DNA of 64,000 nucleotides from an uncultured Alphaproteobacteria bacterium (GCA_944392295.1 CALXWE010000008.1:12474-76473); one strand, 5' to 3'; counted from the stretch's first letter, positions 24,733 through 44,505 are shown. The notes: generated from the sequence alone by a model not told the origin. Made by a program: numbers and translations.

Positions 24733-25460
24733 TTCATAAACTTGGTATAAAAAGTATAGTGTATGTAGTACGAAAAGTTTTTTTCGTAGCTGTCAGGGCT
24801 TCCGCAATAGGAGTATATCTCATTTAAGCTGATGGTACGTAAACATCCGGCATAATCATGCATCGTAACATATTGGCAGTTAGAATCTCCATAAATTCTA
24901 CCCACTGAAAAATCCGAATTGGCCGTCCATATTTGCATATAAAATAACTTATCGCTATAGCCTTTGGCAATACTTAGCATATTTACGCATTGTTCATGGG
25001 TGGTAAAGACAAGTTGAAATGTGCAGTAATTAGCATCACACTGCAGTGCCATAACTTTATTATTAAATATGTCATATATCTGATTAGTTTTTTTATTGAG
25101 CATCTCATCAGGGACAATGCCGAGCTTAATTAACATATCTTTGGTCAGCTGCGACTTATCGGAAGAGGGAATGCGCGCGGCAGCCATACAAAGACCATCA
25201 AGAATAGCGGAAATCTGCTGGGTTTGCCGGTTAAGTTTGTACTTGTTCATCGCTTTAGAATATCCGGCAATAGCGCCGACGGAAAGTACGCCGATTATGG
25301 CAAGAACACCGAGCATTTCAACCATGCTTCTTCCGGAAAAAGTCGCATCTACTGGCGATTTTGCTCCTCGTGTACCTTTTGTTGTACACGTCGTTACAAA
25401 ATTGCTGCGTATCTGCAGCTTTTTTCGGAAGAATGACCGCCTCAGTTCATAAAATTTCAT
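24729..25460 (-). CDS. type IV pilin-like protein (prepilin-type class III signal peptide), paralog 1, carrying a 36 aa in-frame insertion in the leader
   Basis: GRSMVEMLGVLAIIGVLSVGAIAGYSKAM: Gly(-1), Glu(+5) and a 20 aa hydrophobic helix typical of pilin N-methylation domains. Cysteine pairs in the variable C-terminal half. Confidence 0.6.
   Translation of the reverse strand: MKFYELRRSFFRKKLQIRSNFVTTCTTKGTRGAKSPVDATFSGRSMVEMLGVLAIIGVLSVGAIAGYSKAMNKYKLNRQTQQISAILDGLCMAAARIPSSDKSQLTKDMLIKLGIVPDEMLNKKTNQIYDIFNNKVMALQCDANYCTFQLVFTTHEQCVNMLSIAKGYSDKLFYMQIWTANSDFSVGRIYGDSNCQYVTMHDYAGCLRTISLNEIYSYCGSPDSYEKNFSYYIHYTFYTKFMN
25326..25433 (-). mobile_element. 108 bp RPE-like miniature palindromic element inserted in-frame in pilin paralog 1
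   Basis: Absent from paralogs 3 and 4 at exactly this point (between ELGRS and MVEML). 15 bp terminal inverted repeats TTCTTCCGAAAAAAG / CTTTTTCCGGAAGAA. Internal CGTGTAC..GTACACG stem. Length is a multiple of 3. Confidence 0.6.
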
Positions 25461-25545
25461 CTAAAAGCCTCCGAGTTTGGGTTGTTAAAGGCATTTAAAC
25501 GAAATCATAAACCGTTTTTTTTTTTTGCAATCAAAAAGAGTCCCG
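25461..25545 (-). promoter_or_regulatory. conserved upstream module of the pilin-like gene family (copy 1) with a 12 nt poly-T/A tract
   Basis: ctaaaagcctccgagtttgggttgttaaaggcatttaaacgaaatcataaaccg-T12-gcaa. The same module is found upstream of all four paralogs. Contains TTGCAA and TATGAT hexamers on the coding strand. Confidence 0.5.
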
Positions 25546-25585
25546 TGTTGAAAAACGAGCTGTGGCAGGCTTTAAAAACAACGAG

Positions 25586-29588: not shown

Positions 29589-30293
29589 TTATTTTTGTAG
29601 CAAAATCATTAATCTTTTAAATCCGTTTTTACAAATAGTTAAAGAATCTGATGTGTCTAATCTAGGGTAAGCTGAATTTGAATTATGAGTTCCTTTGTAT
29701 ATTGCTGTATTGCCATCGTCGGTAAGAAGGCTGGTACTGCTGATATTATCATAATAAAGTTTGGTAACGTTCATCATCTGTATGCAATAGGCAATATTAG
29801 TCTCATTAGATGCAGTAAGATTTTCGTTGATTGTAAAATACATCCTCCGCCAATCGGTTGTATCCTGTATAACTATTTGATTTTCCAAACTGTCAAAAAG
29901 CCTATCTGTGTAGCCGTCTTTCAACATATATTCCGGCACGCTGTCAAGTGTTATAAGGTATGGTATAATATTGTCCGTGTTACTGTTGCCGTTTTTTGGG
30001 GTTTTTGATTGTAGATATTCAAATGATACTGAGAGTAGATAACTTAATTCTTGAGAGCTTTTATTTAATCGATATTTTAGTATTGCCTTAGAGTAGCCGG
30101 AGAGAGCGCCGACCGATAAAACACCGATTATCGCCAATACTCCAAGCATTTCGACCATGCTTCTTCCGGAAAAAGTCGCATCTACTGGCGATTTTGCTCC
30201 TCGTGTACCTTTTGTTGTACACGTCGTTACAAAATTGCTGCGTATCTGCAGCTTTTTTCGGAAGAATGACCGCCCGAGTTCATTAAATTTCAT
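29589..30293 (-). CDS. type IV pilin-like protein, paralog 2, with the same 36 aa in-frame leader insertion
   Basis: N-terminal 70 aa nearly identical to paralog 1. Divergent C-terminal domain. Confidence 0.6.
   Translation of the reverse strand: MKFNELGRSFFRKKLQIRSNFVTTCTTKGTRGAKSPVDATFSGRSMVEMLGVLAIIGVLSVGALSGYSKAILKYRLNKSSQELSYLLSVSFEYLQSKTPKNGNSNTDNIIPYLITLDSVPEYMLKDGYTDRLFDSLENQIVIQDTTDWRRMYFTINENLTASNETNIAYCIQMMNVTKLYYDNISSTSLLTDDGNTAIYKGTHNSNSAYPRLDTSDSLTICKNGFKRLMILLQK
30159..30266 (-). mobile_element. 108 bp RPE-like palindromic element, second copy, in-frame in pilin paralog 2
   Basis: Sequence essentially identical to the 25326..25433 copy, at the same position of the gene. Confidence 0.6.
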
Positions 30294-30375
30294 CTAAAAT
30301 CTCCAAAGTTTGGGTTGTTAAAGGACTTTAAACGAAATCATAAACTGTTTTTTTTTTGCAACTTTAAAAGGAGCC
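30294..30375 (-). promoter_or_regulatory. conserved pilin-family upstream module (copy 2), poly-T tract of 10 nt
   Basis: ctaaaatctccaaagtttgggttgttaaaggactttaaacgaaatcataaactg-T10-gcaactttaaaagga. Confidence 0.5.
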
Positions 30376-39189: not shown

Positions 39190-39822
39190 TCAAGGTATTA
39201 AATTGAAATATAACACGCAAGCTTTTTCGGAATAACAAGTATTGCAGATTTGATCAATATCGCTAATCGACATATTTTTTAGGCAATTAACTTTTGAAGT
39301 ACAGTAATTATTACCGTAAAGTATGCCAGTTTTGTTTCCAAAGCCATCGGTTAGATGGACATAATATACATCATTAACAAACTGTCGGGCAATGTTTAAG
39401 ATATTGATGCAAACTTGTTTATTTTCATTATCTATGGTCATATTGCTTCCTGATCCAGAATCGTCTTTTTTTAAGTATGTTGTAAAATGATAATATATAC
39501 CATCATATAATATATCTATAACATTGTTAAAATTATCGTAAATCTTGCTTCCCTTATACGTCATACCGTCTGGAACAAGGTTTAGTTGGTAAAAAATTTT
39601 ATCTAATATATGAGTTTCTTCAGCATAGTTATAATTATGCAAATATTCTCGAAATCGGACACCGTTTGCTATAAGAGTGCTAAAAGCTTCAGCGTGTTTA
39701 TTGAGTTTATATTTAAGCATTGCTTTGGAATAACCCGAGATAGCCCCAACCGATAAAACGCCGATTATTGCCAGCACGCCGAGCATTTCGACCATTGACC
39801 GTCCAAGTTCATAAAATTTCAT
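39190..39822 (-). CDS. type IV pilin-like protein, paralog 3 (short leader, no insertion)
   Basis: MKFYELGRSMVEMLGVLAIIGVLSVGAISGYSKAMLKYKLNK followed by a divergent Cys-rich C-terminus. Confidence 0.6.
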   Translation of the reverse strand: MKFYELGRSMVEMLGVLAIIGVLSVGAISGYSKAMLKYKLNKHAEAFSTLIANGVRFREYLHNYNYAEETHILDKIFYQLNLVPDGMTYKGSKIYDNFNNVIDILYDGIYYHFTTYLKKDDSGSGSNMTIDNENKQVCINILNIARQFVNDVYYVHLTDGFGNKTGILYGNNYCTSKVNCLKNMSISDIDQICNTCYSEKACVLYFNLIP

Positions 39823-39918: not shown

Positions 39919-40545
39919 TTACCCTGCGCGAACAAAGCCCCAAGAAAATCCAATGCGGCAGTATCCCGATTGTTGACAAGTACGGCAATATTCTTGCATA
40001 TCAGTCAGCTTCAAATCTTTAAGACAATCTCGATTATCGGTACAATATTCATCACCATCGGTTGCCAAAATTGTTCCACCGTCCAATAAAAAGGAGAAAT
40101 GCCATAAAGAGGCGCTGCGCTGTTGCATTAATTTTGCAATATTAAAGCATACATCAATATCTCGTTTAGAAACAACTATGTTCATACTAAAATATGTACC
40201 AACTTGCTCTTTTACGTATTCGACTTTTGTTTGATTGCCGAGGGCATCGTAGATAGAAACGTCATTGTCGGTTCGAATCATTTCATCGGGGATGATGTTC
40301 ATTTTTTTTATCAATGACATAAATTTTCCTGGATCGGTAGATATATTGCCACGGTCACGGCTAAATTCATCGGCGTGAATTAGTAAATTATCCATAATAA
40401 AAGTGATTTGGTCTGCTTGTTTATTAAGTTTATATTTTAACATCGCCTTAGAATATCCGGCAATAGCGCCCACCGATAAAACGCCGATTATCGCTAAGAC
40501 ACCTAACATCTCGACCATAGAACGACCAAGTTCATTACATTTCAT
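39919..40545 (-). CDS. type IV pilin-like protein, paralog 4 (short leader)
   Basis: MKCNELGRSMVEMLGVLAIIGVLSVGAIAGYSKAMLKYKLNK followed by a divergent Cys-rich C-terminus with CxxC. Confidence 0.6.
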   Translation of the reverse strand: MKCNELGRSMVEMLGVLAIIGVLSVGAIAGYSKAMLKYKLNKQADQITFIMDNLLIHADEFSRDRGNISTDPGKFMSLIKKMNIIPDEMIRTDNDVSIYDALGNQTKVEYVKEQVGTYFSMNIVVSKRDIDVCFNIAKLMQQRSASLWHFSFLLDGGTILATDGDEYCTDNRDCLKDLKLTDMQEYCRTCQQSGYCRIGFSWGFVRAG

Positions 40546-43834: not shown

Positions 43835-44505
43835 TTAGCCGGTGGTTCTTCTTTAACGGGTGTAACCCTAATTGTACCAGCAAACGCCTTAATGGCGTAT
43901 GACGGCCTGACAGAGCGAAGATTACTTGCTACCCGTAAACGGGTCAAAATCCATCGTTAATTGACTTTGTTCCGCGTCTTCTTTAAGTTGATTTCGAATA
44001 TACTCAGTAATTTTTTGAGTATTCTTTCCTGTTGTATCTACATAATATCCACGACACCAAAATTCTCTGTTTCTATATCGGAATTTTGCATTTCCCCACC
44101 GTTCATATATGGCTAAACTACTTTTACCTTTGAGATAGCCCATAACCGAACTTACCGAAAATTTTGGCGGTATCTCTACTAACATATGAATATGATCGGG
44201 ACAAACTTCTGCTTCTATTATGCTTATTCCTTTCCATCGGCATAATTCTCTTAATATTTGACCTATTTCTAGACGACGTCCTCCGTAAAACGCTTTTCTA
44301 CGATATTTAGGGGCGAAGACAACATGATATTTACAATTCCATGTTGTATGTGCTATTGTATGTGTGTTCATAAAAAAACTCCTTTGCTTTTGTTAGACTT
44401 TTGCCAGACCGTCTAACCTTACTTTAGCAAAGGAGTTTTTTTTGTGTAAAGCTGTAAGCTCTTTGGAACTACCGGCCTAGCCGGTAGTTTTCTTGTTACA
44501 AAAAC
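43835..44505 (-). mobile_element. IS200/IS605-family insertion sequence (about 670 bp) bounded by related subterminal hairpins
   Basis: Hairpins ACCCACCGGCTTAGCCGGTGGTT (43838..43860) and AACTACCGGCCTAGCCGGTAGTT (44478..44500) flank a complete Y1 transposase gene. Confidence 0.65.
43922..44371 (-). CDS. tnpA: IS200/IS605-family Y1 (HuH) transposase TnpA
   Basis: 149 aa. HIHMLVEIPP HuH motif and a catalytic Tyr region (RGYYVDT) characteristic of IS200 TnpA. Confidence 0.85.
   Translation of the reverse strand: MNTHTIAHTTWNCKYHVVFAPKYRRKAFYGGRRLEIGQILRELCRWKGISIIEAEVCPDHIHMLVEIPPKFSVSSVMGYLKGKSSLAIYERWGNAKFRYRNREFWCRGYYVDTTGKNTQKITEYIRNQLKEDAEQSQLTMDFDPFTGSK

Follow-up and report, generated by a model that had tools for sequence, protein, structure and literature searches.

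Rickettsia palindromic elements (RPEs) are palindromes of 100–150 bp that lie in frame and free of stop codons within genes, where they add a tolerated peptide to the product; they are dispersed in many unrelated, mostly housekeeping genes, and their encoded peptide is conserved (PMC10969869). Here, we analyzed a stretch of 64,000 nucleotides from an uncultured Alphaproteobacteria bacterium (GCA_944392295.1 CALXWE010000008.1:12474-76473; the whole stretch is denoted as the window), in which a 108-nt palindromic unit occupies the leader-coding region of two out of four pilin-like paralogs (p1–p4). The unit resembles RPEs in being an in-frame palindrome of approximately 100–150 bp (108 nt, 36 codons) inside an open reading frame (ORF) of an alphaproteobacterial host. 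Unlike RPEs, it belongs to a set of modules that reside in one gene family, at one site and in one orientation, as tandem mosaic arrays; the module peptide is unconserved, and the segment is predicted to be cleaved off. Concatenated six-frame translations of the unit, searched against 5.8 billion proteins, matched no Rickettsia protein, a comparison that is indirect because the RPE consensus sequences were not aligned. The favored interpretation, which as a joint statement we hold at about even confidence, is that the unit is a leader-resident palindromic module that is translated, then removed together with the leader, and that recombination spreads or eliminates.

Repetitive extragenic palindromes (REPs) and REP doublets forming hairpins (REPINs) occur in tens to hundreds of dispersed copies and are associated with the REP-associated tyrosine transposase RAYT. 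They are extragenic and have a GTAG or CGTC tag at one end (PMC3733652). The modules share with REPs, REPINs, and bacterial interspersed mosaic elements (BIMEs) a length of ~100 nt, imperfect palindromy, compensatory evolution of the arms, an arrangement of several types in mosaic tandem arrays, and a comparable hairpin stability. They differ from REPs and REPINs in that they are intragenic and in frame, appear to spread by gene conversion, and end in TTCTTCC...GGAAGAA, with GTAG solely at a variable internal position (AGTAGATG or AGCAGATG). No RAYT was seen in the window or in ~0.5 Mb of related loci, where the one Y1 protein present matches the Pfam IS200-like transposase family. Among pilins, type IVb leaders are long (about 15–30 aa) and basic. 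The proteins studied here resemble type IVb prepilins such as TcpA and BfpA in a leader ending in Gly, a Glu at +5, a hydrophobic N-terminal helix, a TcpA-like modelled fold, and a weak Bundlin match, and depart from them in a predicted +1 residue of Arg, instead of Met, Leu, Val or Phe. To our knowledge, the predicted leaders of 45–179 aa, composed of repeated palindromic DNA, are far beyond any described leader. The Neisseria pilE/pilS system likewise comprises multi-copy pilins with conserved 5′ and variable 3′ parts, short-tract conversion, and adjacent non-B DNA. Unlike pilE/pilS, each copy in the present family carries its own ribosome-binding site, start codon, and upstream block, with no expression-site/silent-cassette layout; the structure is a hairpin in the coding region, not an upstream G-quadruplex, and a causal link between structure and conversion would be hypothetical. 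Full-text literature searches returned nothing relevant on palindromic elements in pilin leaders or on prepilin multigene families with inverted repeats.

The 108-nt string occurs in the window as two exact copies (Table 1), where none is expected by chance. As a first-pass annotation of the window had stated, the segment is identical in p1 and p2, with 0 mismatches, and is absent from p3 and p4. Alignment of the four paralog 5′ regions places the unit between CGGTCA (Arg-Ser) and ATGGT (Met-Val) with exact junctions, while the same type of junction is uninterrupted in p3 and p4. The filled site thus reads CGGTCA–108 nt–ATGGT and the empty sites read CGGTCA–ATGGT and CGTTCT–ATGGT; the boundaries are unambiguous and cannot be shifted, and comparison of the filled and empty sites revealed no target-site duplication. 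On the coding strand, the unit starts with TTCTTCCGAAAAAAG and ends with CTTTTTCCGGAAGAA-GC. The 15-nt inverted repeat with one mismatch (14/15 complementary), the CGTGTAC...GTACACG stem, and the 36 stop-free codons, encoding FFRKKLQIRSNFVTTCTTKGTRGAKSPVDATFSGRS, are all as originally described. Its palindromy had been understated, since RNA folding yields one long imperfect hairpin over the full length (minimum free energy of -47 kcal/mol, z = -7.2), and none of 200 shuffled sequences was equally stable. The DNA fold reaches -23.5 kcal/mol (z = -5.1). The hairpin starts 27 nt past the ATG, just beyond the initiation footprint. Neither the inverted-repeat motif with two mismatches nor an nhmmer profile detected any further module in the window, and a gathering-threshold Rfam scan of the window returned only tRNA and STnc490, with the module region matching no family. 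The p1 and p2 units differ at 0 of 108 positions, whereas their 60-nt flanks are identical at only 83% (upstream) and 75% (downstream), indicating that the module copies are much younger than the gene duplication. Duplication of the unit together with its host gene, one of the two origins proposed by the annotation, is excluded by these divergent flanks.

The host genes encode putative prepilins. The four paralogs have a common N-terminus, in which ...GRS is followed by MVEMLGVLAIIGVLSVGA, and display the features of a class III leader: Gly at -1, Glu at +5, and a hydrophobic helix of ~20 residues (G followed by RSMVEMLGVLAIIGVLSVGAI). Gly at the cleavage site with Glu at +5 is the canonical type IV prepilin register. 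Residues G7, R8, S9, and E12 are invariant in 42 family sequences, and the predicted cleavage after Gly would generate a mature protein starting with RSMVE, with Glu at +5. The earlier observation that the in-frame palindrome lengthens the class III leader and re-creates G-R-S before MVEML is upheld. The pilin-like proteins score below the cut-offs of the N_methyl, TIGR02532, and pseudopilin models (Pfam, NCBIfam) throughout, and a sequence search of the PDB with p3 gave no match at E up to 1. The AlphaFold2 model of p3, built from 42 sequences with a predicted local distance difference test (pLDDT) score of 82.8, contains a long N-terminal helix (residues 8–56) that packs against a sheet. In the PDB, the model significantly matches only the type IVb pilin TcpA (8uhf_F; E 4e-4, probability 1.00, template-modelling score 0.52–0.56), and the protein accordingly models as a type IVb pilin with TcpA as the best match. 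At a 90% identity level, the search with p3 retrieved at least 7,854 clusters. A predicted leader of <10 aa was found in 30 members of a set comprising the best 120 relatives and the ten from the peptide search; the remaining members have predicted leaders of 10–115 aa, nearly all ended by G-R-S, and modular long leaders account for ~75% of the best 120. A Hadza human-gut sample is the source of one related contig.

The six-frame peptide search matched ten clusters, all pilin-like, with the match at the same site and in the same frame (69–97% identity); one of these proteins (P0001) contains three units in tandem. Scanning one genome per species (185,579 species) with a degenerate DNA pattern gave 54 loci. 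Apart from one chance match, these came from six metagenome-assembled genomes (MAGs), each titled 'uncultured Alphaproteobacteria bacterium' and holding up to 18 loci. Every pattern copy lies directly 5′ of MVEMLGVLAIIG or of another module. Based on BLAST with reference units, three module types were defined: type A (108 nt, TTCTTSCG...CGGAAGAAGY), which includes the window copy, type B (108 nt, GAACGACCG...CGGTCGTTCY), and type C (129 nt, GAAATTGCG...CGCAATTTC). In the six MAGs and metagenome contigs, 112 out of 112 A/B/C modules lie in the orientation of the gene, in frame, and no more than 650 nt upstream of a pilin N-terminus. The leaders hold 0–5 modules, corresponding to predicted lengths of 7–179 aa, and at least 20 module orders exist among 59 complete genes. 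Hybrid modules join a type A 5′ arm to a type B 3′ arm or place type C outer stems around a type B core, and one hybrid folds poorly (z = -2.8). A more sensitive nhmmer profile found 108 sites, 102 of them in leaders. No module match was obtained by BLAST against plasmid and phage collections or in scans of the JGI metagenome collection and of viral contigs; the zeros in the JGI collection probably reflect that collection, since the relatives come from ENA assemblies. The annotation had described the behaviour of the unit as RPE-like. Insertion of a miniature element into many unrelated genes is not supported, given the confinement of the A/B/C modules to the leaders of one family and of the peptide matches to pilin-like proteins. 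What stands of the palindromic RPE reading is a discrete in-frame unit, present or absent among paralogs and conspecific strains; free insertion does not stand.

In other members of the pilin family, this leader position is taken by hairpin modules of a second family unrelated to the first (peptide ...SGLTRISR...LDTPVKPECD...GRS). Its members at L065:10001-10160, L065:16373-16568, and L067:5301-5502 also fold as hairpins.

The modules are constrained in frame, end, and structure. All 77 distinct modules are open in the frame that continues into the pilin, while a shuffled module would be open with a probability of ~0.10; the other forward frames carry stops in most module copies. The openness of five of the six frames, considered as a sign of selection, was discarded as a property of the window subtype only, since most other A/B/C copies have stops in the other forward frames. 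The terminal, MVEML-adjacent module ends with G-R-S in 54 of 54 cases, compared with 2 of 16 for modules that are followed by a further module or by a spacer; the rest of these end with GRI, GRN, GRG, AIS, TRG, and similar. The G-R-S codons are GGA AGA AGY in type A and GGN CGN TCN in type B, and the 5′ arm tracks them (TTCTTCC in type A, GAACGACC in type B). The outer stems differ among the three types, each being self-complementary. Pairing is found in 93.6% of the cells in type A, with 49 double-change cells versus 18 ± 5 in shuffled data (0/500 reach 49) and at most 14 in slid controls, and in 96% for type B, with 20 double-change cells versus 3 ± 1.8. The substitutions lack codon periodicity (type A variability of 0.109, 0.117, and 0.114 at codon positions 1–3), and one protein (P0022) has an A-like module translated in another frame. 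From these patterns, we infer selection on the DNA or RNA structure, not on the peptide. Taken together, a module must stay open, end with G-R-S if it is the last, and remain a hairpin, with the encoded peptide otherwise irrelevant, which fits a leader that is translated and then discarded.

Strong, covarying hairpins would also be produced by selection for a cis-acting mRNA structure, in which hairpins past the start codon control stability, RNase III processing, or translation rate for each paralog. The module number would then serve as an expression dial, and the short leaders would be deletion derivatives. We regard this explanation as rather doubtful. The prevalence of long leaders among the best 120 relatives, the convergence of at least two unrelated module families on hairpins at this position, the hairpin onset outside the initiation footprint, and the short leaders with module-type R-S codons are consistent with it. 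It accords poorly with the presence or absence of the module among conspecific strains at one gene, the free variation in module number and order, the tolerance of decayed or hybrid modules that do not fold, and the lack of an Rfam family match in the region.

With the variable C-terminal domains of p1 and p2 as queries, we retrieved a p1 ortholog (P0132, 90% identity) that has a short leader, MKFNELGRS. Its contigs (L069–L072) are syntenic with the window at ~18.7–31.5 kb, L073 extends the synteny to ~36.2 kb, and the identity of 98–99.4% marks these strains as conspecific with the window strain. The p1 ortholog lacks the module in all four strains, with the BLAST alignment broken exactly at 25325 and 25435. 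Relative to these orthologs, the 47 nt of the window that precede the module contain 7 mismatches, and downstream of it there are 18 mismatches in the first 58 nt versus 1 in the next 52; farther upstream, the match is perfect save for one mismatch just outside the 47 nt. Compared with the p2-type allele of L070 and L071, the same patch differs at only 4 of the 47 nt preceding the module and at 3 of the first 50 nt following it. A patch of ~213 bp resembling the p2-type allele argues for gene conversion rather than transposition. In the simplest reading of these alignments, the module entered p1 through gene conversion over a short tract, with a p2-like donor located at a distance of 4.8 kb. 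Independent insertion, the other origin suggested by the annotation, is contradicted at p1, where the module sits inside the patch from a p2-like allele.

The converted patch bears directly on the alternative of a true non-autonomous transposable element, either a miniature inverted-repeat transposable element (MITE), a palindrome-associated transposable element (PATE) or an RPE-like element, mobilized by a transposase in trans. A candidate enzyme would be an IS200/IS605-type Y1 transposase, which acts on hairpins without target duplication and would need a very strict specificity for the position after G-R-S. We regard this origin as quite improbable: the p1 copy is embedded in the patch with no clean 108-bp insertion, 0 of the 112 copies are reversed and 0 lie outside the 5′ ends of the pilin family, the module junctions are heterogeneous, hybrids have breakpoints inside modules, and the plasmid, phage, and viral collections contain no match. 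It would account for the 15-nt terminal inverted repeats, the whole-length hairpin, the sharp module boundaries without target-site duplication, and the finding that copies with an identity of at least 97% have unrelated flanks, whose first mismatch lies 0–6 nt from the module ends; an IS200 Y1 transposase also lies 18 kb off in the window. The latter, the only transposase in the window, was rejected as a parent, since the transposase (43922-44371) and its hairpin ends are dissimilar to the module, and tblastn found no IS200 transposase in the other ~0.5 Mb of loci. Of the hallmarks of MITEs, the module possesses the terminal inverted repeats and lacks a target-site duplication; a parent insertion sequence (IS) with the same ends and dispersed sites was not found in the window and the other loci, with full genomes not searched for transposases. 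The module ends also do not fit the RYYYAAC/GTTRRRY consensus of integron attC sites, and the gene lists of the loci include no integrase.

Misassembly is a further explanation to be weighed at p1, in that the module or its placement there could stem from mis-joined reads of paralog 5′ ends. The paralogs do have identical blocks of 40–110 nt around the leader, and many related contigs are short and end inside modules. The module boundaries are nevertheless consistent in dozens of independent assemblies, including contigs of 50–220 kb, the flanks of p1 and p2 are syntenic on both sides with four other strains, and neither covariation nor reading-frame rules are expected from misassembly, rendering an artefact exceedingly improbable.

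The p2 locus also varies among the strains. The module is intact at this locus in the window and in L003. L069 carries a 35-nt deletion (~1270–1320) from the module 3′ arm into the coding region, and L070 a 64-nt deletion (~1259–1330) from the module centre into the coding region; each deletion joins a breakpoint within the module to one among the first mature-pilin codons. The corresponding gene calls are 185 and 111 aa versus 234 aa for p2, and L070 and L071 have a 2-nt deletion in common. Judged from these alignments, the L069 and L070 orthologs are likely pseudogenes generated by deletion at the hairpin. In L072, the p2 locus holds a different gene, with a short leader and R-S codons of the type A kind (AGA AGT). 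Among the short leaders, the AGA-AGY codon set occurs in 5 cases and CGN-TCN in 4, and p4 has exactly the G-R-S codons of a type B module end (GGT CGT TCT). Short leaders with both module-type codon sets are compatible with collapsed modules. The scenario raised in the annotation as a possible refutation, an ancestral long leader with deletion in p3 and p4, thereby gains partial support from the codon ends of the short leaders and from the high share of long leaders among the best relatives. The element is in this sense unique to the pilin-like genes, although the polarity may run either way for each gene.

Recombination at the 5′ ends extends to module-free genes. The p3 gene body occurs in other samples behind different, module-bearing 5′ ends, with the protein 100% identical over the aligned part and the DNA near-identical, and the breakpoint of this swap lies ~35–40 nt into the mature coding region. 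At L003:400-1122, the rpoC-adjacent slot of p3 contains another pilin-like body and another leader with a module remnant. The sequence shared by this L003 gene and p3 is limited to the promoter-side block and to ~35 nt at the start of the mature coding region, while rpoBC is 98.9% identical; this looks like a cassette-type gene replacement.

These rearrangements raise the question of whether the module itself initiates recombination. In this proposal, a hairpin or cruciform at the pilin 5′ end would draw a structure-specific nuclease, and the resulting break would start conversion, in a system of antigenic variation analogous to the one in Neisseria, where a G-quadruplex lies upstream of pilE. 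The centring of the p1 conversion patch on the module, the reshuffling of 5′ ends and gene bodies among conspecific strains, the deletions with one end in the module, and the very large family with variable C-terminal domains and conserved 5′ blocks would all agree with such a role. We consider it unlikely: 5′ swaps are likewise seen in genes that carry no module (p3 and its counterpart locus in L003), the pilin genes have no linked nuclease or recombinase, and recombination could follow from the conserved flanks alone. A broader version, in which the modules act as a pilin-variation device whose leader DNA triggers or channels conversion among dozens of paralogs and/or sets expression via mRNA hairpins, is doubtful in our assessment; by analogy, it would be a coding-region counterpart of the pilE G-quadruplex.

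In the leader-resident model that we favor, hairpin modules of 108–129 bp would build the leader-coding region of a very large type IVb-pilin-like family in uncultured human-gut Alphaproteobacteria. The ribosome would read through the modules to produce an extended prepilin leader, the last module supplying the Gly-Arg-Ser before the hydrophobic MVEMLGVLAIIG helix, with Gly at -1 and Glu at +5. Prepilin peptidase is predicted to remove the whole insert, so that none would be left in the mature protein, and the modules may persist because the prepilin leader is expendable. Movement between paralogs would proceed by short-tract homologous recombination (gene conversion) and not by random transposition, as exemplified by the p1 copy in the window, with homology provided by the conserved 5′ untranslated region (UTR) and leader start on one side and by the N-terminal helix codons on the other. 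Recombination between modules at shared internal boxes may create hybrids and new orders, and modules would be lost through hairpin-associated deletions, by homologous and microhomology-mediated recombination. Compensatory changes would maintain the hairpin. Hairpin loops of palindromic insertions in yeast escape mismatch repair, and hairpin upkeep could likewise derive from a transmission advantage in heteroduplexes, in which the loops escape repair. It could also derive from an mRNA-level effect on stability or translation, and recombination initiation and a non-selective self-correction of quasi-palindromes are further candidates.

Several points weigh against this model. Six of the nhmmer profile matches fall at five intergenic sites, all located immediately 3′ of pilin-like genes; the module superfamily is not strictly confined to leaders, and the notion of a leader-only confinement was dropped. 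The loci were gathered via the module or the pilin genes, so that copies elsewhere that have diverged from the search pattern would be missed. The polarity of the p1 event, a gain in the window strain or a loss in the four others, is deduced solely from the resemblance to the p2 allele. Nearly all comparative data are short-read metagenome assemblies, in which paralog repeats of 100–300 bp could yield chimeric joins that mimic conversion. Leader translation and cleavage by prepilin peptidase are themselves inferred from sequence features. Lastly, the covariation can also arise from template-switch 'self-correction' of quasi-palindromes, with no selection needed.

Table 1. Coordinates of the modules, host genes, and neighboring features in the window.
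Feature	Position	Strand	Basis or remark
Type A hairpin module, 108 nt, 36 codons, leader of p1	25326..25433	-	Exact repeat, whole-length hairpin
Second identical type A module, leader of p2	30159..30266	-	Exact repeat, paralog alignment
Mosaic (gene-conversion) patch around p1 module, ~213 bp (putative)	~25268..25480	-	~47 nt + 108-nt module + ~58 nt
Pilin-like gene p1, 243 aa, predicted leader 45 aa	24729..25460	-	ORF; weak N_methyl, Bundlin matches; paralog of p3
Pilin-like gene p2, 234 aa, predicted leader 45 aa	29589..30293	-	ORF, family searches
Pilin-like gene p3, short leader MKFYELGRS	39190..39822	-	Empty site between 39795 and 39796
Pilin-like gene p4, short leader MKCNELGRS	39919..40545	-	Empty site between 40518 and 40519
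Upstream block common to p1–p4 (ribosome-binding site, 5′ UTR, and poly(A) tract)	25461..25546	-	Repeat family D1
Membrane-protein gene by p4, 438 aa	40668..41984		Tandem pair, ~80-82% DNA identity
Membrane-protein gene by p4, 450 aa	41992..43344		Tandem pair, ~80-82% DNA identity
IS200-type Y1 transposase gene, STnc490 RNA upstream	43922..44489		Y1_Tnp, E 6e-38; Rfam 58.5 bits

The intergenic relatives of the modules (L059:6767-6870, L056:6314-6416, L035:1206-1308, L067:6182-6284, and L025:842-937) have inner stems unlike those of type A, and changes on both of their arms preserve pairing. Among the five, three orthologous ones directly adjoin the stop codon of an rpoA-like gene and are accompanied by partial copies upstream. 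These relatives could be orphan leaders or terminator-like hairpins. In the upstream block of the pilin-like genes, the last ~80 alignment columns before the ATG are mostly invariant in the four paralogs. Within each block, a poly(A) tract is found in the coding-strand context TTGC-A(n)-CGGTTTATGAT (window positions 25515-25526 and 30348-30357, with equivalent tracts 5′ of p3 and p4); it comprises 12, 10, 12, and 11 A in p1–p4 and 9, 10 or 11 A at the p2 locus of the conspecific strains (L069–L072, L003). This length variation could represent slipped-strand phase variation. A role of the tract as a promoter spacer was rejected, as a consensus scan calls no canonical sigma-70 promoter or spacing there. 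Two tandem membrane-protein genes adjoin p4 (Table 1).

If the leader-resident reading holds, a cleaved leader peptide would constitute a safe harbour for repetitive palindromic DNA at no cost to the protein, a solution that differs from the surface-loop tolerance proposed for RPEs. Repeats would then be able to spread by conversion within a multigene family without a transposase, which would bear on the classification of 'mobile-looking' repeats. The predicted leaders of 45–179 aa would probe the substrate range of prepilin peptidase, and if the modules do act as a variation device, leaders of up to ~180 aa would be the longest prepilin leaders known. For the organisms themselves, the findings would reveal a very large, unannotated type IVb-pilin-like surface family, reshuffled at its 5′ ends and by cassettes, as a candidate system of antigenic variation in a poorly known gut lineage.

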